From: an uncultured Alphaproteobacteria bacterium
GTDB lineage: Bacteria; Pseudomonadota; Alphaproteobacteria; Rhizobiales; Kaistiaceae
NCBI GenBank assembly: GCA_963762605.1
Contig: CAVXLJ010000025.1
Coordinates: 7,187 to 71,186, forward strand
Length of the DNA stretch: 64,000 nt
Reading direction: 5' to 3'
Shown: positions 24,719 to 42,062 of the stretch, one piece after another
Position numbering within the stretch: position 1 is the stretch's first letter
Layout: each line of letters starts with the position of its first letter
Translations under genes and position numbers: made by a program
The notes under the pieces: generated by a model
What the model was told of the DNA's origin: nothing
Seen by the model: only the letters and a program-made list of their open reading frames with translations
Databases searched by the model: none

Positions 24719-24735
24719 GATCCGTCTCCCAATCC

Positions 24736-25501: not shown

Positions 25502-25503
25502 CG

Positions 25504-27748: not shown

Positions 27749-28109
27749 GTTTTCCTCCTTGTTGCCGACCATTGCTGCGTATCGAGATGAAATCAGCGGT
27801 GGGCTGCCGACGTCATTTCAGGTGTAGGCCCATTTGACCGCGCGACAGTCCTCGTCGCTTGGGCATCGGCCGACCACACGATCGATCGCACCCGGTCGAG
27901 GGCGGATCGTCGCGCGCTCCTGGTAAAATCGGAAAAGACTTTCGACCGGCTCGACCTGAGGGGCGCGGCGACTGAGCGCAGAAAGCGCTTCGGCGGTTCC
28001 GATGCTGGCGAGCATCGTCCGTGCCGACCGCCCTCGCCCGAAAAGTGCGCGGGCTAGCGAGCGCATTCGAATTTTCCTCCCCGGAACTGCTCTATGGCAG
28101 CCCCTTATT

Positions 28110-28145
28110 TTACGCGCGTAACATTACATTTAACGCGAGACGCGT
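28110..28145. promoter_or_regulatory. Candidate LacI-type operator palindromes
   Basis: TTACGCGCGTAA (28110..28121) is a perfect 12-bp palindrome. ACGCG-AGA-CGCGT (28133..28145) is a second inverted repeat. Both lie between the divergent sugar-ABC operon and the LacI gene. Confidence 0.35.
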
Positions 28146-28234
28146 GTCAAGCTTATAAAGTTGCGTTCGCGTGCAGACTCCGTCTACTATGTTGCGGCGG
28201 TCGCAGGCCGTCGCACCAATCAGCATTCCCACCG

Positions 28235-29260
28235 ATGGCCACTGACGCCGCTCACACCATGCAGGACTTCGCCCGACTGATCGGACTGTCACGTCCGACC
28301 GTGTCGCGCTTTTTTGCCGATCCCGATTCGGTGCGCCCGCGCACCCGCAAGCTGATCGAGGAGGGCATCCGCAACTACGGCTACAGCCCGAACTTCTTCG
28401 CCTCCAATCTCACGCGCCGCTCGCCCCGGGCCATCGGCATCATCGTGCCGTCGATCATCGATCCGTTCTTCGGCGAACTGGTCAGCACGATCGAACTCTA
28501 TGCCGAGGATCGCAGCTATCTCACTGTGCTGCAGTGCTCGCACAACGACACGGCTCTGGAGCGCCGGGCACTTTCCCGATTGATGGCGATGGACGTTGCG
28601 GGAATCGCCATGGCCCCCCTCGGGTTCCGCTCCGACATCGCCGCCGTCGAGCATGCCATGGAGCAGGTGCCGATCCTCTTCATGGACTCGCGCCTGCGTG
28701 ACGGGGTGCCCTATGTCGGCACCAACAATCGAACCAGCATGGCGCTCATGGTGGATTATCTGTGCCGCTCGGGTTCGCCGCCGGCGCTGTTCACCATGCC
28801 GGCGGTGAACGCCAACATACGGGAACGGTGCGAGGCCTACTGCGACCGCATGCGCGAACTCGGTCACGAGCCGCGCATCCTCAATCCCGAGGACGGACCG
28901 GTCGGTGACGAGTACGAGCGCTACGGCTTCGAGCGGTTCCTCAGCCTGCCCTCCGAAAGGCTGGCCGGCGTCGATACCATCCTTTGTTCCAACGATCGGG
29001 TGGCGTTCGGGCTGTTGGCGGCGGCAAAACGGCTGGGAATTAGTGTCGGAACCGGGCCGGGCAACACTCTGCGAGTAGGTTCGCACGACGGTCAACGCTT
29101 CGGCGCTTTCGCCTCGCCGTCGCTGACGACATCGGGCCAGAACATCCGCGGAATTGGGGAGCGGGCGGCCAAGACCCTGATCGACCTGGAGAATGGCGGG
29201 GAGCTTCCACAGGAAGATATTCTGCTCGACGGAACGCTGATCTTCCGCGATTCCGCCTAG
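28235..29260 (+). CDS. LacI family transcriptional regulator
   Basis: This is the MATDAAHTMQDFARLIGLSRPTVSRFF... part of ORF 28094..29260, with an HTH plus a periplasmic-binding-like effector domain. Confidence 0.85.
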   Translation: MATDAAHTMQDFARLIGLSRPTVSRFFADPDSVRPRTRKLIEEGIRNYGYSPNFFASNLTRRSPRAIGIIVPSIIDPFFGELVSTIELYAEDRSYLTVLQCSHNDTALERRALSRLMAMDVAGIAMAPLGFRSDIAAVEHAMEQVPILFMDSRLRDGVPYVGTNNRTSMALMVDYLCRSGSPPALFTMPAVNANIRERCEAYCDRMRELGHEPRILNPEDGPVGDEYERYGFERFLSLPSERLAGVDTILCSNDRVAFGLLAAAKRLGISVGTGPGNTLRVGSHDGQRFGAFASPSLTTSGQNIRGIGERAAKTLIDLENGGELPQEDILLDGTLIFRDSA

Positions 29261-30798
29261 TGACCTTCCTCCCGGGCAATGCGCGCCAGCTCGACATCGA
29301 CCGGCCACAGGATCGACTGCAGCTGGTCGAAAGCAGCGCGCCGCACGTCTTGGTAACGTCGGATGAGATCGTCATCCGGCTCGACGACATGTTCGCGCCG
29401 GTCGAGGGCAGCCAGCGCCACCTCAAGATTTGCCCATAAACCGGCGGCAATACCGCCGAGCAGGGCGGCGCCGAGCGCAGTGGCCTCCGATTCGTCGACG
29501 ACGGTAACGGGCCGGCCGAAGGCATTCGCCTTAATGGCGACCAGAAGCGGGTTGCGCGCACCACCACTGATCAGGTGGATGCGGTCAGGCGCCGGCACGC
29601 CCTTCAGCCGGGCGACGGCATCGACGATGAAGGCCGCGCGCATCGCCAGGCCCTCGAGCATGGCGCGATAGAGCGTCCCGCGTGTGGCGTTGGCGGTCAG
29701 CCCGATGAAGGCGCCGCGCACCGGATGCTCCGGGTCGGACGAGGTCTGGCCGAACATGTGCGGCAGGAAGACAATGCCCTCGCTGCCCGCCGGAACCGCC
29801 TCCCCTTCGGCGATGAGCGCCTCGTGCGGCGGATGGCCGACCAGATCGCGGAACCATTCGACGGCGCTGCCGGAATAGGCGACGGCGGCGCCGAGATAGT
29901 AGAGCGAGCGATGCGCTTCAAAGGCGCCCTGAAACAGGTTCAGCCTGGGCAGCATCGGATCGAAGGACGGCTGCGCCATGGCCAGCACCAGCGCTTCCGC
30001 CGTGCCGATGCTGTCGATCATCGTCCCCTGCACGCTCATGCCGGCAGCCATCGCCCCGCAGACGTGATCATGGGCCCCGACGCCGACCACCGGGTTGCCG
30101 GCTATGCCGGTCGCCGCCAGCACATCGGGACGCACCGGCCCGAGCGGTGTGCCGCTGGCTGTGAGCGGCGCCAGCGCCGAGGTATCGAGACCGGAGAGAG
30201 AGATGAGCTCATCGGCCCATTGGCGGCGGCTGAGATCGAGATAGAGCGTGCGCGAGGCGAGCGTGAAGTCGGTGGCCGCCACGCCCGACAGGCGGAAAGC
30301 GATCCAGTCGGCGATCATCAGGACCCTGCGTGCCCGCCGCATGGCGTCCGGCCAGTGCGTGCGCATCCATATCAGCTTGCTGAGCGTGTAGATGTGGTCA
30401 AGCTGCAGGCCGGTGACGGCGAACACCGGCTCGACACCAAGTGTTGTGCGCAGCGTCCGTCCTACCTCTTCGGTGCGCTCGTCGAACCAGGCGATCGACG
30501 GCGCCAGCGGCTTTCCCGCCTCGTCGAGGAGCACGCAGCTCTCGCCGACGCTGGCCACCGCAATGCCCGCAACCGGCCTGCCGGCGAGCGAGCGCGCCAC
30601 CTCGCCAAGGCACTCCGTGACGGCAGTGAACAACGCCTCGGGATCGTATTCGCAACGATCCGGCGCCGGGTGCTGTGCCGGCGTCGGCCGGTGCGCCCAG
30701 GCGACCTGATTGCCGCGCGCGTCGAAGGCCAGCGCCCGCACCGACTGCGTTCCGACGTCGATGCCGATCAGGAAGGGCGGTTGCAAGTCCTCTGCCAT
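29257..30798 (-). CDS. FGGY-family carbohydrate kinase
   Basis: 513 aa. N-terminal FLIGIDVGTQSVRALAFD and a C-terminal FGGY domain. Its stop overlaps the convergent LacI stop (CTAG). Confidence 0.85.
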   Translation of the reverse strand: MAEDLQPPFLIGIDVGTQSVRALAFDARGNQVAWAHRPTPAQHPAPDRCEYDPEALFTAVTECLGEVARSLAGRPVAGIAVASVGESCVLLDEAGKPLAPSIAWFDERTEEVGRTLRTTLGVEPVFAVTGLQLDHIYTLSKLIWMRTHWPDAMRRARRVLMIADWIAFRLSGVAATDFTLASRTLYLDLSRRQWADELISLSGLDTSALAPLTASGTPLGPVRPDVLAATGIAGNPVVGVGAHDHVCGAMAAGMSVQGTMIDSIGTAEALVLAMAQPSFDPMLPRLNLFQGAFEAHRSLYYLGAAVAYSGSAVEWFRDLVGHPPHEALIAEGEAVPAGSEGIVFLPHMFGQTSSDPEHPVRGAFIGLTANATRGTLYRAMLEGLAMRAAFIVDAVARLKGVPAPDRIHLISGGARNPLLVAIKANAFGRPVTVVDESEATALGAALLGGIAAGLWANLEVALAALDRREHVVEPDDDLIRRYQDVRRAAFDQLQSILWPVDVELARIAREEGH

Positions 30799-30833
30799 AC
30801 GCGTTGACCGCGCTTCTTCGTGACCGGCCGCGG

Positions 30834-31820
30834 TCAGCCCTGCAACACCGGATCGGTGATCACGATGTCCTCGGCGAGCGGACGGTCGGGCGTGAGCTTG
30901 TTCTTCGCCAGGCCGTCATGATAGACGCGCACCGCCTCGTCGGGCTTGATCTCACCTTCGACCACGGCGCGCATGAGACGGACGAGCGCGATCGGATCCT
31001 CGGCAAAGTTGATCTTGCGGCCGAACAGGGCAACCCGTGCACCGTACTTCGCCGCCTGCCCGATGAGCTCGAAGGTGTCGCGGGTGGTCCCTTTGGAACC
31101 GCCGAGAATGCCCGGAATCAGATACCCCGGATCGTAGGCGGCCAGCTCCTCCATGGCGCGGGCGCCGTTGTACTTGATTTTCAGGAACGTCGGCTGTTCG
31201 GCGCTCATCACACCGGCGAGCACGCGCACGACGTTGTCGTTGATGAAGGAAGCGAGGTCGGCGCCGTCCTTGAGGCGGATGTCGAAGGTCGGATTGAACA
31301 CCTCGAGGAAGTGCCGCATGCCGTAGGTGGCTGCCTCCGCCCGGAAGGCCGAATAGGCCTCGGCATTGATGACGTCGATGTCGCGCTGATTGGAGAAGGT
31401 GACCGAATAGAGCCCGAGGTCGGCGTATTTGCGCGCCTGGTCGAGACGCGCCGTGCGGTGATGGCGCGACGGCTCCTCGTTGTAGCGCGCGCCACGCGCC
31501 GCCCAGATGTCGGTCGTATCGTTGAGGCGGATGGCCGGCGTCACCGGGCTATCCTTGAACAGGCCCTCCTCCGACAGGCGTTCGGCGGCAGAGGCCGACA
31601 CCAGCATGATGTCGACGAGGCCGGAGCGGGTCATCTCCCGGATTCTGTCGAGATAGACCGACCGTGTGGCAAGGCGGCCGGGCCGCGCCCGGTCCGGTCC
31701 CGGGGAGGTCATCCCGAAACCGACATCTGCGTCCTTGGCGTCGGCCATGATGAAGTCGGCGGGGCCGTATTCGCCGCCGCGAATGCGAGCGAGTTTATGT
31801 TCGAGGCTTTTTTTGTTCAT
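30834..31820 (-). CDS. Uncharacterised predicted (beta/alpha)8 barrel protein, possibly class I aldolase-like
   Basis: 328 aa. It shows an alternating strand/helix pattern with DFIMADAKD, a Lys in FLKIKYNG and ILGGSKG. I recognise no defined family with certainty. Confidence 0.6.
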   Translation of the reverse strand: MNKKSLEHKLARIRGGEYGPADFIMADAKDADVGFGMTSPGPDRARPGRLATRSVYLDRIREMTRSGLVDIMLVSASAAERLSEEGLFKDSPVTPAIRLNDTTDIWAARGARYNEEPSRHHRTARLDQARKYADLGLYSVTFSNQRDIDVINAEAYSAFRAEAATYGMRHFLEVFNPTFDIRLKDGADLASFINDNVVRVLAGVMSAEQPTFLKIKYNGARAMEELAAYDPGYLIPGILGGSKGTTRDTFELIGQAAKYGARVALFGRKINFAEDPIALVRLMRAVVEGEIKPDEAVRVYHDGLAKNKLTPDRPLAEDIVITDPVLQG

Positions 31821-31983
31821 GATTGAGCTGACCTAATGCCGCCGTGACCGCGCTCGGCCCGGATGTGCGAGGGATGTCAAACTTTGGTTGGACGTTGTCA
31901 ATGCGTCCCGGTGCCGTGGGGGCGTTGCGAACGGGACGAGGCAATCAAAGGGGAACACGGAGGCGGTACTGACGCACAAACGA

Positions 31984-33267
31984 TCACTTCTCGACCGTCG
32001 CGCCCCACCGCTCGATCGCCGCTGCCAGCTCCGGATAATCCTTCTCCGATCCGTCGAACCTCCCCTGCCTCATCATCAGGTCGATCCCCTGCCGGAATGC
32101 GGTCGCCCCGGCCGTGGCACCCATCGGGTGCGCGTAGATCGCCCCGCCAGCCCCCACCACGAAGTCTCGCCCCAGGTCAGCGAAGGCCCGCGGCAGGTGG
32201 CCCGGCTTGAACGCGCCGCCGACGATCGGCCACGCCCCGGGCTTATCGTGCAGCGGCGCCCGCAAGCCGAGGCTCATGCGCAGGTATTTTTCGCGCAACA
32301 GCGGGAACTTGCCGAACGGCGTCGGGATGGTCAGCAGGTCAACGCCCGCCAGCCGCGGCAGCTTGCCGTAGAGCAGCGTCGACGTGACCCCGTGCCGCGA
32401 ACTCCCATACAGCGCCCCGCCGAAATCCAGGTGTGCCAGAATCGGCACGTTGACCTTGCGGTTGCGCGCCAGCGACGACAACAGCCCGAGCCCTGCCGTC
32501 AGGAAGTTGATCATCACCCCGGTCGCTCCCGCTTCGACCGCCTTCTCCGCCTTGCTGAGCGCACGCTCGGGCTCATCGGTGACGTTGACCATGTAGAGCT
32601 TCTTCTCGCCCGTCTCCAATTCTGCCTGGCGCAGCTTCTTGGTGAACAGCTCCACCCGCCGCAGCACCGGCGAAAAGTCGGTGTCGGCCAGCACTTCGTC
32701 GTCCTTGATGATGTCCGCACCGCCGATCGCCGCCGCGTACAGCCGCTCGGCCCCCTGCTCGGGCGAAATCCCGATCGACGGCTTGATCATGGTGTTCAAG
32801 AGCGGCCGATCCGGCACCCCGAGCAGCTTGCGGATCCCTTGAATCCCGAACTGCGGCCCGGGCAGCGCGTCCGCGAGCGGCTTCGGGAATGTCAGCTCAA
32901 GGAGCTTGATGTCGCCGATCATCGAGATGTTGCCGAACACCGTCGTCAGCAGCATCGGGATCTGCCCGGCGAAGTTCCTCCACGGAAAGGCCAGCTGGAA
33001 CACGAACTCCCGCTCGTCGCTCCGCTGCGCCGCCTCGTTCTCCACGTCCGGGATCTCGAAGACGTTCACCACCTTCGCCCGGTGGTCGCGCAGCATCTCC
33101 GGCGTCACCCCCGGCACCTCTACCCATGTGCCGGTCGACTGCTCGTTGGCCGCTCCCGCCAGCAACTTCGAGATGTCCGACGACGGCGTGCGCAGCAGAT
33201 AGGTTGCCACCAGATGGTCAGACAATTTCGGGTCCTCGGGCAGGACGAACTGGTCGAGAGCGGCCAT
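31984..33267 (-). CDS. Form IV RuBisCO-like protein (RLP)
   Basis: 427 aa. RuBisCO large-subunit landmarks are present: NTMIKPSIGISPEQ (K175 equivalent kept, K177 replaced by Ser), GGADIIKDDEVL (K201/D203/E204 equivalents) and ILAHLDFGG. No small-subunit or cbb genes lie nearby. Confidence 0.88.
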   Translation of the reverse strand: MAALDQFVLPEDPKLSDHLVATYLLRTPSSDISKLLAGAANEQSTGTWVEVPGVTPEMLRDHRAKVVNVFEIPDVENEAAQRSDEREFVFQLAFPWRNFAGQIPMLLTTVFGNISMIGDIKLLELTFPKPLADALPGPQFGIQGIRKLLGVPDRPLLNTMIKPSIGISPEQGAERLYAAAIGGADIIKDDEVLADTDFSPVLRRVELFTKKLRQAELETGEKKLYMVNVTDEPERALSKAEKAVEAGATGVMINFLTAGLGLLSSLARNRKVNVPILAHLDFGGALYGSSRHGVTSTLLYGKLPRLAGVDLLTIPTPFGKFPLLREKYLRMSLGLRAPLHDKPGAWPIVGGAFKPGHLPRAFADLGRDFVVGAGGAIYAHPMGATAGATAFRQGIDLMMRQGRFDGSEKDYPELAAAIERWGATVEK

Positions 33268-33316
33268 CGCTTGCTTCCTTTCAGTGGATTGCTCGCGCGC
33301 GGTCGGCAGCGTTCCC

Positions 33317-34453
33317 TCAGCGCGGTGTCGCGTCCGGCAGCCCGCCGTCCACCGGAATCGTCGCCCCCGTCGTCGGGGTCTGTCGCGTCACCAGGAAGTT
33401 GACCGCGTTGGCCACGTGCCGCGCCGTAACCCGCGCCTTCAGCAGGTTGCGGTTGCGATAATACTCCTCCAGTTGGGAGGCGCTGAGCCCGCGCGCTTTC
33501 ATCCGGTCCGGGCCGACCTCTGCCCACAATCCGGAATGCACGCCGCCCTCGCTGAACACCGCGTCGGGCGCCACCATGTTCACGCGGATGTCGTGCGGCG
33601 CCAGTTCAAGACTCGCGATTCGCGCCAGCTGGTGGGCCGCCGCCTTCGTCGCGCTGTAGGCTCCGAACCGCGCCCCCGGCGAGAACACGTTCTTGGTCGA
33701 GATCAGCACCATGTCGCCGCCGGTGCCTTGCCGCACCAGCCAGCGCGACGATTCCGAAAGCACCAGCAGCGTGCCTTCGATGTTCACCCGCGCCAGCCGC
33801 TGAAAGTCCTCCAGCTTCAGCTCGTCGAGCCCGGCCACATGCGCCAGCCCCGCGTTTGCGATCACGATGTCGATGCCGCCCCACGTCAGCGTCACCGCCG
33901 CCAGCGCGTCGGTGACCGATTCCGGCTTCGTCACGTCTAGCGCCACCGCCGTGATCGCCGCACCATATTCGCTCTCGAACTCACTGAATGTCTGGTCCAG
34001 GTTGGCGCCGGCCAGGTCGGTCGCCGCCACGCACGCACCCGCATCCAGCAGGCCCCGGCAGATCCCGCGCCCGATCGCCCCGGCCGCGCCGGTCACCACC
34101 GCCACGCGCCCGGCCAGCGGTCGCCACCGATCGACGTGCGGATAATCGACCTTCAGTGCCGCCGCGTTGCCCAGCCACACGGCCTTCGGGGCCCCGTGCT
34201 TGCGGGTGTGGCCGTCGATCGCCGCCCGGATCGCCGCCCGCGCGTCCTCGTCGCTCGAGCCCGTCAACGAATCCTCGAAAATGAGTGGCGTGGTGCCCGC
34301 CGGCGCTTCCCCGGCCGGCTGTACGATCTGCATCAACGGCGGCTGCAACGGGCGATCCTCGTTCTCCTTTCGCCGCGCCAACGCTCCACGAAACAACAGC
34401 GCCATCCGCGCAAGCTCGCTGGTCGCCCCGCCCGTCGCCATCGAAGCATTCAT
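33317..34453 (-). CDS. SDR oxidoreductase resembling the dehydrogenase half of bifunctional aldolase/SDR (YuxG/RhaD type)
   Basis: 378 aa. An N-terminal extension of about 130 aa precedes LAGRVAVVTGAAGAIG. It also carries ISTKNVF...YSATKAAAHQLAR, IRVNMVAPDAVF and a TTGATIPVDGG tail. Confidence 0.8.
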   Translation of the reverse strand: MNASMATGGATSELARMALLFRGALARRKENEDRPLQPPLMQIVQPAGEAPAGTTPLIFEDSLTGSSDEDARAAIRAAIDGHTRKHGAPKAVWLGNAAALKVDYPHVDRWRPLAGRVAVVTGAAGAIGRGICRGLLDAGACVAATDLAGANLDQTFSEFESEYGAAITAVALDVTKPESVTDALAAVTLTWGGIDIVIANAGLAHVAGLDELKLEDFQRLARVNIEGTLLVLSESSRWLVRQGTGGDMVLISTKNVFSPGARFGAYSATKAAAHQLARIASLELAPHDIRVNMVAPDAVFSEGGVHSGLWAEVGPDRMKARGLSASQLEEYYRNRNLLKARVTARHVANAVNFLVTRQTPTTGATIPVDGGLPDATPR

Positions 34454-34737
34454 TGCGGAAAGACCTTCTTCACCGGATGCACCTCAACCGAAGCGTACAC
34501 GCCCCCGGCCACGTAAGGGTCGCCATCGACCCACTGCCGCGCGCCGGCCAGGTCCGCCGCCTGGAAAATGATCACCACCCCGATTGACGTCCCCGCCTCG
34601 TTCTTCAGCGGTCCCGAAAACACGATTCTCCCGTCTTCATTGGCCGACCCGACATACGCCACGTGCGCGTCGCGATTCTCGTCGCGGCGCCGGGCCCCGT
34701 CGGCCCCGTCCTTGGTGTACTCGACAAACAGCGGCAT
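34450..34737 (-). CDS. YciI family protein
   Basis: This is the MPLFVEYTKDG... part of ORF 34450..34854 (95 aa). DPYVAGGVYASVEVHP is typical of the YciI-like fold. Its stop overlaps the SDR start (ATGA). Confidence 0.7.
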   Translation of the reverse strand: MPLFVEYTKDGADGARRRDENRDAHVAYVGSANEDGRIVFSGPLKNEAGTSIGVVIIFQAADLAGARQWVDGDPYVAGGVYASVEVHPVKKVFPQ

Positions 34738-35156
34738 GATGCGCTCCCTCTTCGTTCTTCTGGGTTCTCGCCGGCCTCGCCGACGTCCACTGCTGTGCGC
34801 TTCGCGGATTCGAGAGCGCGGCCGCGGAACGGGATGCGGCGGCCCTCGCGACATCCTCCACCGGAATCCTGACCATTACCCGCCGGCCGGCTCGGATGAA
34901 CTTGCCCGGCCGGCGGCGAAGTCAGCGCGGGAGGCGCCGGCCTGTTCAGGCCGTTACCGAATTCCTGCTGCCGTCTGACGAACGGACGATGCGCGACATC
35001 CGGTGCTTCATCCCCTAGTCTAGGTGCCGGGCCCCCTTGACCCCTCGCTCTTCTGCGGGGCGTCCGTGTGGAAGTTCTTGCCCCGTTTGGCATCGGCTTC
35101 AGGCATGTTCACAAACCTTCTGTTCCAGAGCGTCGGAAGCCGTCGTGCGTCGGTCG

Positions 35157-35876
35157 TCACGCGCCTCGGTCTGCCGACTTGTTGTAGACCTCCACCAGGT
35201 CCTCAGCTTTGCCGTAGCTCGTCAGATAGCGGTGCCGCTCTGCGCGCCACTTTTCCTCGGGGATCGGCGTGATGCCTCCCAGCGCCTGCGCGTGGGCATA
35301 GATCGTCGCCGCCTTCTCAACGAACTGGCAGCATACGGTCGCCTCAGCCAGGTCGCGTCCGCCGCAGATCACTCCGTGGTTCGCGATCATCACCGCCATC
35401 GCGTCCGGCCCGATCGCGCTGCGCACCGCCGCCGCCAGTTCCGGATGCCGTCCGGCCTGAACATACTCGGAGCAATTGACCTGGCCGCCTACGACCTCGG
35501 CCATATCGTCGGTGATCACCGGAATCGGCCGCCGCAGGCAGGCGAACAAAGTCGCGTAGGTCTGGTGTGTGTGGATCAGCGCTCCGATATCCGGCCGCTC
35601 GAGCATCAGCTGCCGGTGCATCTCCAGTTCCGAGGTTGGCACGCGCGCGCCCCGGACCTTGTTGCCGTCCCAGTCGACCACGACCAGGTCGTCCGGACCC
35701 ATCTCGTCCAGCTCCACGCGCGTCGGCGTCAGCAAGAGCCCGTCGGCCACCCGCACCGACACGTTACCCCATGTGCTCACGAACCACCCCAGCCGGTCGC
35801 GCATGGTGAAACACGTGTCGATCAGCTGCTGCCGCAGCTCGGGCGTGTCGGCAAATGGAGTGACGGGTTCGGACAT
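35157..35876 (-). CDS. Class II aldolase/adducin-fold protein
   Basis: STWGNVSVR, the metal-ligand region ALIHTHQTYATLFA, and IANHGVICGG. Start is ATG 35876 (MSEPV) or GTG 35891. Confidence 0.82.
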   Translation of the reverse strand: MSEPVTPFADTPELRQQLIDTCFTMRDRLGWFVSTWGNVSVRVADGLLLTPTRVELDEMGPDDLVVVDWDGNKVRGARVPTSELEMHRQLMLERPDIGALIHTHQTYATLFACLRRPIPVITDDMAEVVGGQVNCSEYVQAGRHPELAAAVRSAIGPDAMAVMIANHGVICGGRDLAEATVCCQFVEKAATIYAHAQALGGITPIPEEKWRAERHRYLTSYGKAEDLVEVYNKSADRGA

Positions 35877-35894
35877 GCGTTGAGGTTTCACATA

Positions 35895-35914
35895 TTGATT
35901 GTCTATGATTGCAT
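35895..35914 (-). promoter_or_regulatory. Leader box TTGATTGTCTATGATTGCAT, copy A (5' leader of the aldolase operon)
   Basis: An identical 20-mer occurs at 40890..40909 in the leader of the dctP operon. It contains the direct repeat TGATTG-N4-TGATTG. Confidence 0.6.
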
Positions 35915-35954
35915 TGACGTGACCGCTCGTCCATCAGCCGCCCGCGACAGCGTG

Positions 35955-36006
35955 ATTCTACGGTAGCATCGTGTTGGGTCAAACCAAATTGTCTGATGGT
36001 TTTTGA
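35955..36006 (-). promoter_or_regulatory. Putative sigma70-type promoter plus upstream inverted repeat, copy A
   Basis: On the minus strand: TTGACC (35982..35977), a 16-nt spacer, then TAGAAT (35960..35955). Upstream lies AAACCA-N10-TGGTTT. A 40-nt block (35967..36006) matches 40961..41000 at 38 of 40 positions by eye. Confidence 0.55.
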
Positions 36007-36081
36007 GTGTCCCGCCTAGAGGGTCGCCAACCCATGCCGACACCGCGTGTGCACGGCATCGGCGACACCCCGGCGCGCCGT

Positions 36082-37383
36082 TCACCCGACGACGTCAGGC
36101 CGCCGGGCCGAAAGGCGAGCGAGATCATCGAACAGGTTCGGGCCGCCCATCTGGCCGCCCTTCAGCGCTATCGGCAGGCCATCGAAACGATTCCCCCCGC
36201 GGAGCTCCACCAGCGGTACGCCCCGGTCGATATCGCCGACGAACGACATGCTCTCGATTCCCAGCGCCGAGATGATGGCGCTCGATGTGTCGCCGCCGGC
36301 GATGAGGACGCACCCCGGACGGACCCGCGCCAGGACGTCGGCGGAAAGCCGGGCCAGCGCTGCGGCAAGCTCGCGGCCACGCAGCGGAGAGGGCGCCGCG
36401 GAGACGGCGAGGAGGAGGTTGCGGCCCTCGGAAAGGACGGTCGCGGCTCGGCCGGCCATGGCGTCGATCGCCTCCTGGCTGCCGGCCAGGTCCGCCGGGT
36501 CGACGGTGACGACATCGTATTGCTGTGCGTGACCGATCTGATCGGCCGTCACCGGCGAGCGGCTGCCGACCAGGACGAAGGCAGGACCCTCAAAGGCGAG
36601 AGGCTTGGCCGACCGGGCAGCCGGCATCGGCTGCGCCTGCGACGTGAGCGCTTCGGCAACGCTGCTGGCGCCAACGCACAGAATCCTCTTCTGGCGGGCG
36701 ACGATATCGAGCGCGGAGCCGATAACCGCGACATCCGCCTGCGACGACACGTCGAACAGAGTGCGTGCCTCGCCCCGCGCAATTCGCTCGAGGATCTGAT
36801 TGGCGAGCATCTCCGCGCCCTGGCTATAGGTGCGGAAATCGATCAGGCCGATGCCGTTCCATCCCTGCTTGCCAAGGTGGAGCCTGAGGTCTGCCTCCCC
36901 CATCGGAGTGATGGGATGGGCCTTCATGACCGGATGGCGGTCGATGCGGTGCACCGAGCCATCGGCGGCCGCGGCATAGAGGGTTCCGAACAGGCAATAG
37001 CGACCGAGCGAGGGCTGCCCGCCGAGGATGGCGATCCATTCAGTCTTGCGGGCGCCGGCGAGGACGTCGACGGCCGCGCAGATGTTCCCGGTATCGGGGG
37101 CACTGTCGAAAGTCGAGCAGACCTTGAAATGGATGAAGTCGGCCTCGATCGTGGCAAGCTGCGCGGCGATGTCCTCCATGGTGGCGCGCCCCGCCTCTGG
37201 GCCAAGGCCGCGCAATCCGGTCGCAATGCCGACGGCGTCGAGCGCCGCCACGTCGGTGTCATTGACGACCTCCGCAACCCGCGGATAGAGGAGCGTCTTG
37301 AGCCCGGCGCGCGACAGCGTTGCCAGCGTGTCGCTCGCCCCGGTGAAATCGTCGCCGACGAAGAGGATCTTCACCGGTTTCAT
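36082..37383 (-). CDS. Four-carbon acid-sugar kinase family protein (DUF1537)
   Basis: This is the MKPVKILFVGDDFTGASDTLATL... part of ORF 36082..37452. It has the family-typical N-terminal DDFTGA motif and a two-domain length of 433 aa. Confidence 0.85.
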   Translation of the reverse strand: MKPVKILFVGDDFTGASDTLATLSRAGLKTLLYPRVAEVVNDTDVAALDAVGIATGLRGLGPEAGRATMEDIAAQLATIEADFIHFKVCSTFDSAPDTGNICAAVDVLAGARKTEWIAILGGQPSLGRYCLFGTLYAAAADGSVHRIDRHPVMKAHPITPMGEADLRLHLGKQGWNGIGLIDFRTYSQGAEMLANQILERIARGEARTLFDVSSQADVAVIGSALDIVARQKRILCVGASSVAEALTSQAQPMPAARSAKPLAFEGPAFVLVGSRSPVTADQIGHAQQYDVVTVDPADLAGSQEAIDAMAGRAATVLSEGRNLLLAVSAAPSPLRGRELAAALARLSADVLARVRPGCVLIAGGDTSSAIISALGIESMSFVGDIDRGVPLVELRGGNRFDGLPIALKGGQMGGPNLFDDLARLSARRPDVVG

Positions 37384-37491
37384 CGCCACCCCGGACCAGT
37401 CAGCGCTGCGTCCGCCTCCGGCCGCCCTTTGCCACGGCAGCCCGGGGCGCACGCGGTTTCGACAAAGTGCGCGGCGGCGATCATGGCGGCC

Positions 37492-38031
37492 TCACGTGGC
37501 GGAGAGCGACGGGAACGGACGGACGGGATCGCTGCCATCCCAGGCCTTGGAGGCTTCGCGGATCGTGTCGAACATGCGCCCCTTGGGGCCGACAACCTCG
37601 GAAAGCTCGATGACGGTGCCGGGATGCATCTCCTTGTCGAAATAGACGAAGCGGCCGTTCGCCCCGACCTCGCCGCTCATCTTCACGCGAAAGCTGCGCC
37701 CTTCCATGACGGCGAGGTCGGCATCGAAATCCTCCGTCCAGTAGGCGACATGCTGGAGCCCGGTGTGGCCGGCCTGCAGGAAATCTCGATACATCGACGG
37801 CGTGTCGCTGCGCGTCTGGATCAGTTCGACCTGGATGAAGCCGGAGTTGGCCAGTGCCACGGAGTTGTGGACCTCATAGGTCCTGCCCTCGTAGCGGTAG
37901 TCCTCGATCGGTACACGCGGATTGTAGAACCACGGGCCCACGCCCATCGTGCCGGCCCAATAGGCCATGGCCTTCTCGATGTCCGTGACCACATAACCCA
38001 GTTGGCGGATTTCGCCGAGCAATCTGCTCAT
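37492..38031 (-). CDS. VOC (glyoxalase/dioxygenase fold) family protein
   Basis: 179 aa. LGYVVTDIEKAMAYW...GLQHVAYWTEDFD shows the paired beta-alpha-beta-beta-beta module pattern. Confidence 0.7.
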   Translation of the reverse strand: MSRLLGEIRQLGYVVTDIEKAMAYWAGTMGVGPWFYNPRVPIEDYRYEGRTYEVHNSVALANSGFIQVELIQTRSDTPSMYRDFLQAGHTGLQHVAYWTEDFDADLAVMEGRSFRVKMSGEVGANGRFVYFDKEMHPGTVIELSEVVGPKGRMFDTIREASKAWDGSDPVRPFPSLSAT

Positions 38032-38037
38032 TTTACC

Positions 38038-39315
38038 TCACTTGAACAGGACACCGGGGAGCCAAGTTGAAATCTGCGGAAAAATGGTGACGGCGAGCAG
38101 CGACAGCAGAAGCGGCAGCAGGAAGGGAAGGACGCCGCGAATGACCGTTTGCAGCGGCATCTTCGCGATGATGCTCACCATGTAGAGGCTCATGCCGATG
38201 GGCGGCGTAAGCAGCCCGATCATCAGGTTGAGCACGAAGACGATGCCGAGCTGGAGCGGATCGACGCCCGCCGCGGTCAACGCCGGCGCAACCAGCGGCG
38301 CGATGATCAGGATTGCCGCAATCGACTCCAGAAACATGCCGACGACGAGAAGAAGCACGTTCAGGCAGAAGAGAAGCACGAGCGGGTTCGACGACAGGCC
38401 GGAGAGCACCGTGCTCGCCATTGCCGGCACCCGGTCGACGGTCAACACCCAGGCGAAAAGCGCGGCCGCCGAGACGATGAAGAGGACGCTTGCCGTCGCC
38501 TCGACCGTATCGAGCCCGGCACGGAGGAATTTGGCCCAGTCGAGCTCGCGATAGACGAAGATGCCGATCAGGATCGCGTAGATGACCGTCACGCCGGCGA
38601 CTTCGGTCGGTCCGAAATAGCCGCTTACCAGCCCGCCGATCAGGAGGACGGGCGCCATGATCGCCGGCAGCGATATGACGAACTTGGTAGCGATCGCGGA
38701 GAGACGCGGCGACACGGTATCGCGCGGCAGCGCGTAGATCCGCGCCGTGACGACGATGTGCAGCATCAGCAGGATGACGATCAGGATGGCCGGAAGCATG
38801 CCTGCGATCAGCAGCTTCACCGCCGACACGTTGGCCGTCGTGGCGTAGATGATGATGGGGATGCTCGGCGGAAAGATGGGGCCGACGGTCGCCGCCGCTA
38901 TGGTAATTCCGGCTGCGTATCCGTCCTTGTAGCCCTGCTCGCGCATCATGCGGATCTGGATGCTGCCGAGCGCGCCGATATCGGCAAGCGCCGCTCCGGA
39001 GATCCCCGAAAAGATCAGGCTGACCAGCACGCTGACCTGTGCCACCCCGCCGCGAACCCTGCCGACGACCAGCCGGACGAGGTCGAAGAGATGACGGGTC
39101 ACGCCGGTCACGCCGAGGAGATTGGCGGCGAAGATGAACAGCGGGACGGCGAGCAGCGGCGAGGAGTCGAGGGAGTTGACCATGCGCTGCGCGAGAACCG
39201 CGACCGGCAGGTGATAGGCGAGAATGACAAGCGCAGAAGAAAGCCCGAGACCGACCGCGATCGGCAGACCCGCAAGCAGAAAGACGCCAAACAACACAAT
39301 CAGTGTCAGGGTCAC
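38038..39315 (-). CDS. TRAP transporter large permease (DctM family)
   Basis: 425 aa polytopic protein, DctM-like. Confidence 0.9.
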   Translation of the reverse strand: MTLTLIVLFGVFLLAGLPIAVGLGLSSALVILAYHLPVAVLAQRMVNSLDSSPLLAVPLFIFAANLLGVTGVTRHLFDLVRLVVGRVRGGVAQVSVLVSLIFSGISGAALADIGALGSIQIRMMREQGYKDGYAAGITIAAATVGPIFPPSIPIIIYATTANVSAVKLLIAGMLPAILIVILLMLHIVVTARIYALPRDTVSPRLSAIATKFVISLPAIMAPVLLIGGLVSGYFGPTEVAGVTVIYAILIGIFVYRELDWAKFLRAGLDTVEATASVLFIVSAAALFAWVLTVDRVPAMASTVLSGLSSNPLVLLFCLNVLLLVVGMFLESIAAILIIAPLVAPALTAAGVDPLQLGIVFVLNLMIGLLTPPIGMSLYMVSIIAKMPLQTVIRGVLPFLLPLLLSLLAVTIFPQISTWLPGVLFK

Positions 39316-39818
39316 GCGTCGGGCTCCACGGTGTGCTCTTCTTTGTCGCGCGGCACGAACAGCAGGTAGGCCGCCACAGCGGCGAAGAAGACGAAGCCGA
39401 GGATGGCTGGCGTATAGAAGACGAGGTTCGGGATGCCCATGGCAGGCGTCGAGAACTTCGCCGCGCGCAGAAGGAACGCGTAGAGCGCCCAGAGCATGAT
39501 GCCGCAGAAGGCCAGCGACAGGAGTCCGCCGATCACGCGGACTCCCGCCTGGGCTTTGCGCGGCAACATCTTCGGGAACAGGTCCATGGCCACGTGCTTG
39601 TCGTCGAGGAGCAGCCGCGGCATTGCAAGGAACACCAGGGCAAGACCGCAGAAACGGGAAAGCTCGTCGGCCCAGGGCAGGCCAAGATCGAAGACGTTGC
39701 GACAGACGACCTGCAACATCACCAAGCCGGCGAGAAGCAGGAGCAGGGCAAATGCCATGTAGAGCATCGCCGAGGCGATGAACGACAAGACGGCACGAAC
39801 GTGCGAAGTCTTCGGCAT
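39312..39818 (-). CDS. TRAP transporter small permease (DctQ family)
   Basis: 168 aa with four hydrophobic segments. It overlaps the dctM start by 4 nt. Confidence 0.85.
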   Translation of the reverse strand: MPKTSHVRAVLSFIASAMLYMAFALLLLLAGLVMLQVVCRNVFDLGLPWADELSRFCGLALVFLAMPRLLLDDKHVAMDLFPKMLPRKAQAGVRVIGGLLSLAFCGIMLWALYAFLLRAAKFSTPAMGIPNLVFYTPAILGFVFFAAVAAYLLFVPRDKEEHTVEPDA

Positions 39819-39858
39819 GCCTGCTCCTGCCTGTACGGCGCGCCCGCTTTGCGGGCCG

Positions 39859-40878
39859 TTAGGCGACGGCCGCTATCTGCTTGTAGAGATCGCCGTACTT
39901 CTCCCCGAACTTCTTCGCGACGGCCGCGTCGACAGACGCCTTGAAGGCATCGAGCTTGAGGCCGTTGTCCGGGCCGATGACGGTCATGCCATGGTCCTTC
40001 AGCGCCTGCAGGTCGGACGCTTCCTTGTCAAGCACGGCCTTGGTAGCGCGCTGGCGCACCGTGTCGGCCGCATCGAGGAAGGCTTTCTGGATGTCCGGCG
40101 AGAACGACTGCCACTTGTCTTCATTGACCAGGACCAGCTCGGCGGCGCGGATATGGCTCGTCAGCATGAGGTGCGACTGAACGTCGTAGAGCTTGTTGTC
40201 GAGGATGACGCTTACCGGGTTCTCCTGGCCAGCGACGACGCCGGTTGCCAGCGATGTCGGTACTTCCGCCCAGTCGACCGGGACCGGCACGGCGCCGAGG
40301 CCTTCGACGGCCGTGAGATAGATGGGCGACGGTATGGCGCAAATCTTGACGCCGCTGAGGTCGGAAGGCTGATAGACCGCCTTATTGCAGGTCAGTTGGC
40401 GGGCGCCGAAATAGAATGCGTAAAGGACGCGCACGCCGCTGGCCTTGATCAGCCCGTCGTTGAGCGTCTTCATGACCGGCGAATCGGGCGCAACGACCTT
40501 CATGAGATGGTCGACGTCGCGATAGAGATACGGCGTATCGAGCGCGGCGATGGGATCGTAGAGGGTCGAGAGGCCACCTGCTGTGTTGTGCGAAAGCGCG
40601 ATCGTTCCGGTCGATACCCCTTCGGCCAGTTCCTTGATCGAGCCAAGCTGCGACGACGGGAAAACCTGAACCGCAACCTTGCCGCCGGTGTTTTTGGCAA
40701 CCTCGTCGGCGAACCACACCGCCTGCAGACCGTTGACGCTGGTCGGCGTGTTCATGTGTCCGTAGCGCAGCGTGATATCGGCGGCAAAGGCTGACCGCGG
40801 CAGGCCCAGCGTGGCAGCGCCGGCGGCCATGCCGGCGAGCGCGAGCACCTGGCGGCGCGACACGCGTGTTTCAAACAT
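39859..40878 (-). CDS. TRAP transporter substrate-binding protein (DctP family)
   Basis: The ATG at 40878 (MFETRVSRRQVLALAGMAAGAATLGLP, Tat-like signal) follows AGGGAGGA. The body is DctP-like. Confidence 0.88.
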   Translation of the reverse strand: MFETRVSRRQVLALAGMAAGAATLGLPRSAFAADITLRYGHMNTPTSVNGLQAVWFADEVAKNTGGKVAVQVFPSSQLGSIKELAEGVSTGTIALSHNTAGGLSTLYDPIAALDTPYLYRDVDHLMKVVAPDSPVMKTLNDGLIKASGVRVLYAFYFGARQLTCNKAVYQPSDLSGVKICAIPSPIYLTAVEGLGAVPVPVDWAEVPTSLATGVVAGQENPVSVILDNKLYDVQSHLMLTSHIRAAELVLVNEDKWQSFSPDIQKAFLDAADTVRQRATKAVLDKEASDLQALKDHGMTVIGPDNGLKLDAFKASVDAAVAKKFGEKYGDLYKQIAAVA

Positions 40879-40889
40879 GATGTCCTCCC

Positions 40890-40909
40890 TTGATTGTCTA
40901 TGATTGCAT
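40890..40909 (-). promoter_or_regulatory. Leader box TTGATTGTCTATGATTGCAT, copy B
   Basis: Identical to 35895..35914. It ends 11 nt upstream of the dctP ATG. Confidence 0.6.
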
Positions 40910-40948
40910 CGGCGGGACCCGTCCTCCATTCCCACCTGTGACAGTTTG

Positions 40949-41000
40949 AGTTTATGAAGACATCGTGTAGGGTCAAACCGAATTGTCTGATGGTTTTTGA
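40949..41000 (-). promoter_or_regulatory. Putative sigma70-type promoter plus upstream inverted repeat, copy B (shared with the divergent LacI gene)
   Basis: On the minus strand: TTGACC (40976..40971), a 16-nt spacer, then TAAACT (40954..40949). The block 40961..41000 is nearly identical to 35967..36006. Confidence 0.55.
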
Positions 41001-41027
41001 TTGCTTTGCGCAAAGGATCAACACACC

Positions 41028-42062
41028 ATGCCGAAGACGAACGGTCCCGTTCTTGCCGATATCGCCGCGCACGCTCGTGTCTCGCCCGCCACCGTCGACC
41101 GGGTCATCAACCGTCGTCCCGGTGTTCGCGAACTGACCGCCAAGCGGGTTCTGCAGGCCGCCGCGGATCTCGGATACCTGCCCCAGAACGACATCACCAA
41201 GACCTTGCGACCGCGCCTCATGCGCCTTGTCTTCCTGCTGCCGGCAGGCACCAATCCGTACCTCAAGCTCCTGGCCGAGACCGTGAAGCGCTTCGCCGCC
41301 GAGCCCGCCAACGCCAACGCGACGGTCCGCTGTTTCTTCATCGACAGTTTCAACCCCAAGATCCTGACCGACGCGCTCAGGCGCTATGGCGACAAGGTCG
41401 ACGGCGTTGCCTTCATGGCGATCGACCATCCGCTGGTTCGCGAGGCAGTCGCCGGCCTCCGCGCCAAGGGCAAGCATGTCATTACCCTCATCTCGGATGT
41501 GTCGAATTCCGAGCGGACGGCCTATGTCGGGCTCGACAATCGCGCGGTCGGACGCACGGCTGCCTATGTCCTTGGCCGGTTGTCGAAGATTGACCACGGC
41601 AAGGTAGCGCTGATCGCCGCAAGTCGCACCTACCGGGCGCACGAGGAACGCGAGATGGGCTTTCTTGGCCTCATGGAGCAGGCCTTCCCGCGGTTCACCG
41701 TGGTTGGATTGCGCGAAGGTCACGATGACCGCGACGAGAACTATCGCCATGCGCTGACGCTACTCGACGAGTACCCCGATCTCATCGGCATCTACAATGT
41801 CGGAGGCTCGTCGGACGGAATCGCGCGGGCCCTGCGCGAGCGCGGTCGCGAGCACGAAGTGCTCTTCATCGGTCACGGCCTGACACCAGACACGCGCCGT
41901 TATCTCGTGGAGGACATCATGGATGTCGTCATCACCCAGAGTCCCGATGCGATCCTGTGGAATGCCATGCAGATCTTCTCCAATGTCCACGTCAGCCTCG
42001 CCCCTCTCGCCGGCGTTCCGCGCTTGCCAATGGAAGTTGTCTTCAAGGAAAACCTGCCATAG
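41028..42062 (+). CDS. LacI family transcriptional regulator
   Basis: MPKTNGPVLADIAAHARVSPATVDRVINRRPGV gives the HTH, followed by a sugar-binding-like domain. It is divergent from the dctP operon. Confidence 0.85.
   Translation: MPKTNGPVLADIAAHARVSPATVDRVINRRPGVRELTAKRVLQAAADLGYLPQNDITKTLRPRLMRLVFLLPAGTNPYLKLLAETVKRFAAEPANANATVRCFFIDSFNPKILTDALRRYGDKVDGVAFMAIDHPLVREAVAGLRAKGKHVITLISDVSNSERTAYVGLDNRAVGRTAAYVLGRLSKIDHGKVALIAASRTYRAHEEREMGFLGLMEQAFPRFTVVGLREGHDDRDENYRHALTLLDEYPDLIGIYNVGGSSDGIARALRERGREHEVLFIGHGLTPDTRRYLVEDIMDVVITQSPDAILWNAMQIFSNVHVSLAPLAGVPRLPMEVVFKENLP

Follow-up and report, generated by a model that had tools for sequence, protein, structure and literature searches.

A form IV RuBisCO-like protein in a mosaic locus of an uncultured alphaproteobacterium: a candidate sugar-acid catabolic pathway

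Gene content of the locus

In a 64,000-nucleotide stretch of contig CAVXLJ010000025.1, which comes from an uncultured alphaproteobacterium of the family Kaistiaceae (the whole stretch is called the window below), a form IV RuBisCO-like protein (RLP) is encoded within a long run of minus-strand genes at positions 29257-42062. We assigned gene families by Pfam and NCBIfam profile searches of the window proteins and refined the gene starts against the orthologs in a related contig, L085; profile scores are in bits, followed by the cut-off of the model where two values are given. An earlier reading made from the sequence alone (the sequence-only reading) had listed twelve such genes between two LacI-family regulators. 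The families, coordinates and motifs stood, while the number of intact genes is eleven, one fewer than had been counted.

In the direction of transcription, the run starts with a tripartite ATP-independent periplasmic (TRAP) transporter, recognized by three subunit families in adjoining genes: the solute-binding subunit DctP (39859-40878; PF03480, and NCBIfam dctP with 194 vs 175), the small membrane subunit DctQ (39312-39818; PF04290) and the large membrane subunit DctM (38038-39315; PF06808, 349 bits). These are followed by a protein of the vicinal oxygen chelate (VOC) fold (37492-38031; Pfam Glyoxalase_4) and by a kinase of the DUF1537, or four-carbon acid sugar kinase, family (36082-37383, the open reading frame extending to 37452; Pfam SBD_N and NBD_C), in which the motif GDDFTGA is present. 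Then come a FucA-like protein of the class II aldolase fold (35157-35891; Pfam Aldolase_II), a YciI-family protein (34450-34737, the open reading frame extending to 34854; Pfam YCII), a long short-chain dehydrogenase/reductase (SDR) of approximately 374 amino acids (33317-34441, or to 34453; Pfam adh_short at residues 116-299), the RLP itself (31984-33267), a 328-amino-acid (328-aa) protein predicted to be a class I aldolase-fold TIM barrel (30834-31820) and an FGGY-family sugar kinase (29257-30798; Pfam FGGY_N and FGGY_C). The gene of a LacI-family regulator (41028-42062, plus strand; Pfam LacI and Peripla_BP_4) is divergent from dctP and probably represses the genes from the TRAP transporter to the RLP.

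The RLP is of form IV, having both large-chain domains (PF00016, 151 bits; N-terminal domain PF02788, 39 bits) and substitutions at carboxylation residues; on the Form III model it scores 231 vs 497. The overlaps or short gaps between genes at dctQ/dctM, dctM/VOC and YciI/SDR indicate operon organisation. Between the aldolase and YciI genes we found, by tblastn with proteins of L085 and of another contig, L005, a frameshifted remnant of about 50 codons of an LsrF-type thiolase gene (35112-34970, minus strand).

A mosaic of three modules

RLP homologs were collected from protein and contig collections, with approximately 550 matches per collection, and the best 80 per scan were examined. The closest ones (clade A, 85-89% identity) occupy four loci besides the window. 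In three of these contigs, namely L005 (an Alphaproteobacteria metagenome-assembled genome, MAG), L007 (a Devosiaceae MAG) and L085, the order of genes from LacI to the RLP is shared with the window at 64-94% amino-acid identity, being LacI / DctPQM-VOC-DUF1537-aldolase-LsrF-YciI-SDR-RLP. Since this stretch is syntenic in three contigs whose downstream flanks are all different, its gene order is not due to chance. Compared with L085, the upstream LacI is 89% identical to its ortholog, YciI is 81% identical to an ortholog of 94 amino acids, and all the genes of the stretch other than the thiolase are full-length and 77-91% identical. In the fourth clade A locus, L006, the RLP gene adjoins a GH78-like gene (glycoside hydrolase, GH) and an aldo-keto reductase (AKR) gene; a DUF1537 gene and one for a racemase-like protein lie at a distance of 7-8 kb.

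The 300-bp gap between the aldolase and YciI genes of the window is the position at which the relatives have a gene of the DeoC/LacD family encoding 292-298 amino acids, intact in all three syntenic contigs. In the window, the L005 and L085 proteins match only with residues 1-24 and 25-50, in two frames, and in the DNA alignment approximately 780 bp of L005 (7471-8249) have no counterpart. The thiolase of the window was lost through this deletion of approximately 780 bp. Because the L005 protein scores 492 vs 297 on NF006081 (3-hydroxy-5-phosphonooxypentane-2,4-dione thiolase) and is 57-61% identical to LsrF of Klebsiella, E. coli and Salmonella, the thiolase of the relatives is, by sequence, an LsrF equivalog; a full-length protein above the cut-off is encoded in L005 and not in the window. 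The sequence-only reading had missed the deleted gene, and had no means of seeing the orthology of the upstream genes to a widespread compact operon, described below.

The last two genes of the run behave differently. The 328-aa protein gave no match in the Pfam search. Its AlphaFold2 model (pLDDT 73.9, pTM 0.78) is a barrel of eight beta/alpha units, in agreement with the (beta/alpha)8 fold noted from the sequence; the best Foldseek matches are E. coli LsrF (3GLC and 4P2V; probability 1.00, TM 0.69), ADH synthase, an archaeal class I fructose-bisphosphate aldolase and YihT. As modelled, the protein thus has the class I aldolase fold of the DhnA/LsrF/LacD superfamily, and its family, lacking a Pfam model, carries the JGI label 'DhnA family fructose-bisphosphate aldolase class Ia'. 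An invariant lysine of this family, K214, lies on a predicted beta strand and, as in class I aldolases, is likely to form the Schiff base. The FGGY kinase has XylB as its best NCBIfam match (277 vs 380) and scores 174 vs 528 on the LsrK model.

Of the clade A loci, only the window and L005 have the two genes near the RLP operon; in L005 an AKR gene on the opposite strand and DhaK/DhaL genes stand between them and the RLP (12027-15097), while L007 and L085 lack the pair. At least 8000 homologs of the 328-aa protein exist, and members of the family adjoin FGGY or PfkB kinases in loci lacking an RLP, such as ones in Bauldia and a gammaproteobacterium. Since the pair is absent in two relatives and is widespread without RLPs, it is probably a separate kinase/aldolase pair, tied to a neighbouring LacI/ABC/AGE-isomerase locus. 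The second LacI-family gene (28094-29260, plus strand; Pfam LacI and Peripla_BP), convergent with the FGGY gene, is divergent from the ABC/AGE-isomerase operon, an arrangement conserved in L005, and the regulator probably belongs to that operon. Thus, the sequence-only proposal of one co-conserved set of twelve genes does not hold: the neighbourhood comparison that it had suggested finds the stretch from LacI to the RLP conserved and the final pair not, and the FGGY protein, which it had counted as a second kinase of the pathway, is probably outside it.

The locus is therefore a mosaic of three modules and not one 12-gene unit, since the last pair is not co-conserved with the RLP and is widespread without RLPs. 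The first module (M1) comprises LacI, the TRAP transporter, the VOC protein and the DUF1537 kinase; the second (M2) comprises the aldolase, the LsrF-type thiolase, YciI, the SDR and the RLP; and the third (M3) consists of the 328-aa protein and the FGGY kinase.

M1 has a further set of relatives. In many cultured Proteobacteria there is a compact operon with the order LacI / DctP-DctQM-VOC-RLP-DUF1537 and nothing else conserved; it was seen in Azospirillum brasilense, Roseivivax marinus, a leaf isolate of the Comamonadaceae, Paroceanicella profunda and Neorhizobium (loci L176, 4165-10302; L177, 4408-10260; L178, 4148-10293; L179, 7198-13047; L180, 6159-13157), and Paracoccus, Sulfitobacter, Variovorax and Burkholderia are also among the matches listed for the M1 genes. 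The carriers are plasmids and chromids. The window VOC protein is 70-80% identical to that of 19 plasmid or chromid records (20 at a level of at least 65%), and the VOC gene is situated between the TRAP genes and the RLP-kinase pair in all five inspected records. The upstream LacI is 51-54% identical to the compact-operon LacI, the window kinase is 41-44% identical to the compact-operon kinases, and DctP and DctM are 61% and 68% identical to the Roseivivax proteins. By these identities and the common order of LacI, TRAP, VOC and kinase genes, M1 is orthologous to the compact operon.

The RLP of the compact operon is, however, of a different lineage. It is an ortholog of PDB 3NWR, is 41-42% identical to OiaX (385-419 vs 700 on the OiaX model) and only 30-33% identical to the window RLP. 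In the compact operon this 3NWR-type RLP lies between the VOC protein and the kinase. No RLP gene is present at this position in the window, where the gap between the two genes is approximately 108 bp, or in its relatives, and no second RLP was found anywhere in the 64-kb window; the sole one, at 31984-33267, lies 3 kb downstream, behind four extra genes. As the window module has no RLP between the VOC protein and the kinase and has a different RLP downstream, one transporter-VOC-kinase module is combined with either of two RLP lineages. The compact operon contains no dehydrogenase gene, except for an extra SDR in Neorhizobium, and the curated NCBI models leave this type of operon generic. Our literature search found no assignment of either RLP lineage, nor of the whole gene set, in agreement with the sequence-only reading, which could place the combination on no described route; an unassigned mention of these clusters in Carter 2018 or Zhang 2016 is possible.

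For the VOC protein we propose a role of isomerase or epimerase acting on the imported acid. The nearest solved structures for DctP are 4P9K, 4PC9, 4PDH, 4PDD and 4NQ8, which we take to be binders of erythronate or pantoate, a point of likeness to tetronate catabolism, a literature search by PDB code having given no confirmation; the window DctP is also 59% identical to the DctP of L003, a locus with a more distant RLP (clade B, see below).

Parts of M2 also occur elsewhere. The Sumerlaeota-like contig L183 (2458-5820) has the aldolase, LsrF, YciI and SDR genes in the same order, at 65, 80, 57 and 63% identity, and ends 250 bp past the SDR gene. In a polysaccharide locus of the PVC type (Planctomycetes-Verrucomicrobia-Chlamydiae; L181, 4943-10128), an LsrF-like gene (80%) and a long SDR gene (60%) accompany a PfkB kinase and a sulfatase; this pair is also near a GH141-like protein and sulfatases. 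From the combination of an LsrF-like enzyme with a long SDR, an 'oxidise then thiolyse' route may be supposed by which polysaccharide degraders handle deoxy-ketose phosphates, although the only annotated role of LsrF is that of an autoinducer-2 (AI-2) enzyme. In the lsr operon lsrG follows lsrF, and YciI occupies this lsrG position after the lsrF-type gene. The locus resembles the Lsr system in that the relatives encode an LsrF equivalog followed by a small alpha+beta barrel protein, and in having an FGGY kinase and an LsrF-fold barrel nearby. It differs in that YciI is not of the LsrG family, the FGGY kinase is far below the LsrK cut-off, uptake is by a TRAP system and LsrF is deleted in the window.

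The M2 aldolase has the HTH and ANHG metal ligands and the glutamate of PTSE, and its best solved relatives are L-fuculose-1-phosphate aldolases, along with the aldolase 6BTD. The SDR, for which 2249 homologs were counted at E <= 1e-40, has a 110-aa N-terminal extension. It is similar to the dehydrogenase part of proteins in which an aldolase and an SDR are fused, matching the C-terminal half of NF006194 (395 vs 686, model positions 434-703) and TIGR02632 (223 bits), and, as in the RhaD/YuxG proteins, a class II aldolase is encoded in the same operon. Unlike those fused proteins, to which the SDR with its score cannot be assigned, the two genes are split, with two others between them; the aldolase is FucA-like, the RhaD/YuxG models not being among its best matches; and an LsrF-like gene regularly accompanies that of the SDR, as in L181 and L183. 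Taken together, the four M2 enzymes (aldolase, LsrF, YciI and SDR) point to deoxy-ketose phosphates ending as dihydroxyacetone phosphate (DHAP) and a C2/C3 unit.

With the modules at hand, we may consider the alternative that the locus is an accidental juxtaposition and/or a decaying remnant having no integrated function in this genome. The deletion of the thiolase gene, the absence of co-conservation between the M3 pair and the RLP, the different evolutionary affinities of M1 and M2, and the adjoining ABC locus, which has no visible ATPase gene, all agree with it. Nonetheless, all other genes of M1 and M2 are full-length at the above level of identity to L085, the M1-M2 fusion is kept in four contigs with differing flanks, and the gene overlaps and short gaps are those of an operon; hence we consider this explanation improbable.

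As to regulation within the run, a sigma-70-like match (TTGACC-16-TAGAAT, 10 of 12 positions; 35982-35955, minus strand) is situated in the 190-bp gap between the kinase and aldolase genes, that is, at the seam between M1 and M2. The sequence-only reading had placed a second promoter there; the match exists, and the case for a promoter is weak, as three such sites were found in the region with 1.6 expected. A shared LacI operator in the lacI-dctP and kinase-aldolase gaps was considered and rejected: the best palindromes differ (TGCTTTGCGCAAAGGA at 41002-41017 and GATTCTACGGTAGCATC at 35954-35970), giving no evidence of co-regulation. No riboswitch or other known RNA was found in the locus at Rfam gathering scores, and no intrinsic terminator was found on the minus strand in the 163-bp gap from the RLP to the 328-aa gene, the overall terminator counts being below the shuffled expectation.

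The RLP lineage, its active site and its neighbours

Few RLPs have assigned reactions, these being MtnW, the R. rubrum isomerase, OiaC/OiaT and the hamamelose enzyme, and each assignment so far has revealed a new part of the capability of the RuBisCO active site. The best PDB match of the window RLP is MtnW (2OEK, 3.8e-78), the 2,3-diketo-5-methylthiopentyl-1-phosphate enolase of methionine salvage, to which it is 36% identical, and on the two NCBIfam MtnW models it scores 335 and 300 vs 409 and 513.6. Its identity to R. etli OiaX is 28.7%; across 374 plasmid or chromid records its identity to the RLPs found there reaches no more than 36%, and is approximately 28% for those annotated as OiaX. 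For the apionate type of RLP, these comparisons were made with R. etli OiaX and the OiaX model. By these measures the RLP is a member of an uncharacterised form IV lineage whose nearest characterised relative is MtnW.

We aligned the active site with those of C. necator CbbL, Priestia MtnW and R. etli OiaX, using residue numbers that we take to be those of spinach RuBisCO, carried over via conserved motifs. The motifs MIKPSIG and IIKDDE are present, and the RLP keeps E60, T65, W66, N123, K175, K201, D203, E204, H294, K334 and the G403/G404 loop; the changes relative to CbbL are K177->S, R295->L, H298->G, H327->T and S379->G. The alignment bears out the sequence-only reading for K175, K201, D203 and E204, as well as for the serine at K177. 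The position of N123 is occupied by Asn in the window RLP and in the more distant clades B and C, by Lys in Priestia MtnW and by Gly in OiaX; that of K334 is Ser in MtnW, and in OiaX E60 is replaced by Asp and W66 by Phe. The lineage retains more of the carboxylation/hydrolysis residues (E60, N123, K175, H294, K334) than MtnW or OiaX. The Mg-carbamate site, the residues contacting the enediolate and the added carboxylate in RuBisCO, and the proximal P1 phosphate site are kept, and the distal P2 site is lost. As P1 is kept and P2 lost, the alignment suggests that the substrate is a monophosphate with, or acquiring, a carboxylate next to a carbonyl, as would suit what an acid-sugar kinase produces.

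The D-hamamelose RLP, described as a 3-keto-D-ribitol-1,5-bisphosphate oxygenase (Kim et al. 2018, as cited in PMC8914248), cleaves, in an oxygen-dependent reaction, a bisphosphate made by two kinases. The window locus has two kinases, of which the FGGY one is not co-conserved; R295, H298 and H327 are replaced in its RLP, and the closest relatives of the latter are in Desulfobacterales and other anaerobes. A bisphosphate substrate formed in the hamamelose manner is disfavoured, given the loss of the distal phosphate residues and the lack of co-conservation of the FGGY kinase.

The proximity to MtnW raises another alternative, in which the RLP does not decarboxylate at all and is an MtnW-like enolase/tautomerase, or an isomerase catalysing a 1,3-proton transfer as in R. 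rubrum, on a diketo- or deoxy-ketose phosphate. The aldolase-fold protein would then be an MtnB-like dehydratase, and the RLP product would pass via YciI and the SDR to the LsrF-type thiolase. MtnW is indeed the closest characterised relative, a class II aldolase-fold gene lies in the same operon and belongs to the superfamily containing MtnB (TIGR03328, 71 bits), and the substrate of LsrF is a diketone phosphate, according to the NCBIfam name and the title of PDB 4P2V. A cupin gene is directly upstream of the RLP gene in 9 of the 52 loci surveyed below, which recalls the RLP-cupin pair of the R. rubrum 5'-methylthioadenosine (MTA)-isoprenoid shunt. On the other hand, the RLP is below both MtnW cut-offs. 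It has Asn at the position of the Lys that is reportedly the catalytic base of MtnW (Imker et al. 2007), and keeps K334, absent in MtnW. For the aldolase, FucA and epimerase models give better scores than MtnB does, and no mtnK, mtnA, mtnX or mtnD gene was found in the window locus. Finally, this alternative leaves unexplained the adjacency to an acid-sugar kinase, the carboxylate transporters (TRAP, TctABC) and the beta-keto acid cleavage enzyme (BKACE) of the neighbourhoods described next. We therefore regard it as unlikely, though it is the chief competitor of the pathway proposed below.

Clade B RLPs (59-72% identity to the window RLP) come from Desulfobacterales, Spirochaetaceae, Sumerlaeota and many metagenome contigs. 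Among 52 non-redundant clade A/B loci, 44 contain a DUF1537 kinase gene, nearly always immediately downstream of the RLP gene, and six of the eight loci without it have less than 1 kb of contig downstream. In this lineage an acid-sugar kinase gene is thus a near-constant neighbour of the RLP gene, as seen in over 40 independent loci that range from anaerobic sediments to soil Alphaproteobacteria. BKACE is encoded directly upstream of the RLP in 24 of the 52. Other partners in these clades are TRAP or TctABC transporters, Asp/Glu-racemase-like proteins, the cupin already mentioned, GntR and a zinc-dependent alcohol dehydrogenase. An LsrF-like gene follows the kinase gene in the clade B loci L013 and L125, and the kinase of the clade B locus L087 scores 414 on the OiaK model, below its cut-off of 700.

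The trio BKACE-RLP-DUF1537 is found in L011, L012, L014-L016, L087 and L098-L128, with BKACE approximately 0.9 kb upstream, and often together with TctABC, an AKR, an AP_endonuc_2 isomerase, a split transketolase and DhaKL. The DhaKL genes recur near clade B RLPs and, counting L005, are present in five of the 52 loci, which hints that a triose or ketose is formed in free form. Another context, likewise unassigned, is that of the clade C RLPs (46-50% identity; Anaerolineae, Syntrophomonadaceae, Theionarchaea and others; L020-L084 and L129-L175), with an FGGY kinase in approximately 29 of 65 genome loci, and also PEP-hydrolase-like (PF09370), UPF0261, ComB-like phosphatase and aminotransferase-like genes.

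The oxidative catabolism of D-apionate (ApnO, OiaK and the RLPs OiaC/OiaX or OiaT; Carter et al. 2018, as summarised in PMC6302742 and PMC12994016) likewise joins a kinase of the DUF1537 family and a form IV RLP in one cluster for a sugar acid. The expected logic, in which a keto-acid sugar is phosphorylated and the RLP then performs enolate chemistry, would be the same. A DUF1537 kinase followed by a class II aldolase-fold gene likewise resembles the OtnK/OtnC pair of tetronate catabolism (Zhang et al. 2016, as cited in PMC12994016). It might thus be supposed that the locus is one of these routes in a divergent host: the kinase, the RLP and the class II aldolase-fold protein are all present, and the best NCBIfam matches of the kinase are OiaK and OtnK. 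The scores, however, are far under the cut-offs (OiaX 184 vs 700, OiaK 226 vs 700, OtnK 172 vs 350, OtnC 89 vs 250), so that none of the four names applies, and, compared with the R. etli pair, the RLP and the kinase have identities of only 28.7% and 32.7%. The R. etli apionate cluster consists of oiaX, the kinase, TPI-like, RpiB-like and PGDH-C-domain genes, a ribose-type ABC transporter and Gfo/Idh/MocA, and shares only the RLP and kinase families with the window locus, in which uptake is by TRAP; in place of isomerases, the window has a downstream aldolase, SDR and thiolase, the last as a remnant. No ApnO-like, TPI-like, RpiB-like, Gfo/Idh/MocA or apiose dehydrogenase family was found in the window locus by Pfam and NCBIfam, nor were LtnD, DenD or OtnI genes, and the RLP is distant from all those on the plasmid and chromid records.

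On cut-offs, pairwise identities and gene content we reject the known apionate, tetronate and MtnW assignments, and hold a described apionate or tetronate route in a divergent host to be very improbable. The placement of the locus outside the described routes, already made in the sequence-only reading, is hence upheld. Its view that OtnC-like and OiaC-like enzyme types are combined here is valid at the superfamily level only, the aldolase being FucA-like and not OtnC-like. The locus is of a known kind, that is, catabolism by an acid-sugar kinase and an RLP, and the pathway itself is undescribed.

Candidate pathway

We tentatively propose, with a confidence somewhat short of even, that M1 and M2 form a composite catabolic system for a carboxylate-bearing sugar acid, in which decarboxylation/enolisation by the RLP would be followed by formation of DHAP and a C2 unit. 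The sugar acid would be imported by the TRAP transporter and isomerised, in a redox-neutral step, by the VOC protein. The DUF1537 kinase would then phosphorylate the terminal CH2OH next to the carbonyl, yielding a monophosphorylated keto-acid, which the RLP would bind via its Mg-carbamate and P1 site for enolate chemistry. By analogy with OiaC/OiaX acting on 3-oxo-isoapionate 4-phosphate, this step would most likely be the decarboxylation of a beta-keto acid to a deoxy-ketose 1-phosphate. In the ancestral operon the SDR would oxidise the latter to a 2,4-diketo-3-hydroxy phosphate, namely 3-hydroxy-5-phosphonooxypentane-2,4-dione (P-HPD) or a close analogue; YciI would stand in the LsrG position, and the LsrF-type thiolase would cleave the diketone with CoA to DHAP and acetyl-CoA. 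Alternatively, the FucA-like aldolase could end the pathway with DHAP and an aldehyde. With the thiolase gene gone in this genome, only the aldolase branch could work, or else the pathway is decaying.

The position of BKACE upstream of the RLP in nearly half of the clade A/B loci counts in favour of this pathway, BKACE being another enzyme that acts on beta-keto acids by cleavage. Several points weigh against the proposed pathway. The nearest characterised RLP, MtnW, acts as an enolase, an activity other than decarboxylation. Elsewhere, the kinases adjoining the same RLP lineage share only about 29-35% identity with that of the window, so that here the kinase is paired with the RLP on the ground of operon membership only. 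The three syntenic relatives are close, as judged by the identity of their RLPs (85-89%), so that their synteny is in part inherited. If the compact operon needs only the VOC protein, the RLP and the kinase, the need for M2 is unexplained. The SDR might act before or after the RLP, and, by analogy with RhaD/YuxG, it could serve as an aldehyde dehydrogenase. Lastly, the thiolase deletion may signify that selection on the operon has ceased in this genome.

In one particular form of the proposed pathway, the substrate is a branched aldo-acid, for example L-aceric acid (3-C-carboxy-5-deoxy-L-xylose), which is a sugar of rhamnogalacturonan-II (RG-II). On paper, this acid would give each enzyme a necessary part. 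Here the VOC protein would convert the aldose to a ketose, giving a methyl homologue of 3-oxo-isoapionate, the kinase would form its phosphate, and the RLP would decarboxylate this to a 5-deoxy-pentulose 1-phosphate, from which the SDR and thiolase, or the aldolase, would produce DHAP with acetyl-CoA or acetaldehyde, respectively. In the compact operon, the RLP could instead perform an OiaT-type transcarboxylation and hydrolysis yielding lactate and 3-phosphoglycerate. Such chemistry involves no redox step and calls for just three enzymes (isomerase, kinase and RLP), which is the content of the compact operon; the 5-deoxy (methyl) end would suit LsrF, FucA-like and YuxG-like enzymes, and the carboxylate would suit TRAP uptake. 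Our literature search found no catabolic pathway for aceric acid.

The genomic context of some RLPs of the lineage bears on the same question. In the Sumerlaeota MAG locus L001 (120-16210), the RLP gene (72% identity) and an Asp/Glu-racemase-like gene lie amid GH106, GH2, GH78, GH127 and GDSL esterase genes, with no kinase gene within 10 kb of the RLP gene; in L006 the RLP adjoins the GH78-like gene, and in L017 it is near GH127. The families GH106, GH2, GH78 and GH127 are used on chain B of RG-II, although GH127 enzymes are mostly beta-L-arabinofuranosidases. Since just three of the 52 loci have such neighbours, we rejected the use of nearby glycoside hydrolases as a general pointer to the substrate and retain them as a lead only. 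Moreover, many compact-operon carriers are marine (Paroceanicella from the Mariana Trench, Roseivivax, Sulfitobacter), where RG-II is scarce; the chemistry is derived on paper; and ascorbate breakdown products or 2-deoxy-5-keto-hexonates also fit parts of the scheme. Aceric acid as the actual substrate is thus a doubtful proposition, to which we give little credence.

A broader conjecture, for which we likewise see only a slim chance, is that the MtnW-sister and the 3NWR-type RLPs independently perform RuBisCO-like carboxyl chemistry, either decarboxylation or transcarboxylation with subsequent hydrolysis, on a monophosphorylated branched keto-acid that comes from L-aceric acid or a similar deoxy aldo-acid, with an LsrF-type thiolytic ending. 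If true, this would be the first catabolic route for aceric acid, ending in DHAP and acetyl-CoA, and one orthologous operon would have exchanged two RLP lineages that are approximately 30% identical to each other. If the proposed pathway is true, it would also give a role in sugar catabolism to LsrF-like thiolases, whose present annotation is that of quorum-quenching enzymes. The module combined with two RLP lineages and the link to the LsrF-type thiolase make the RLP reaction directly testable, and cultured strains with the compact operon exist, among them Azospirillum brasilense, Paracoccus and Roseivivax.

Several neighbouring features complete the description. The ABC locus next to M3 comprises, on the minus strand, genes of a solute-binding protein (26753-27772; Peripla_BP_4), a permease (25504-26661; BPD_transp_2) and an AGE-family (AGE/GlcNAc-2-epimerase) isomerase (23438-25009); no open reading frame of an ABC ATPase was seen between the genes of this locus (23438-27772). 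A second TRAP system lies at 18401-23189 on the plus strand, with DctP at 18401-19381, DctM at 19984-21267 and then an SDR at 22344-23189, and had no relation to the RLP locus in any test made. In L085, directly downstream of the operon (12601-15046), there are DndB, QueC and Vut_1 genes, which may represent a 7-deazaguanine or DNA-modification island.

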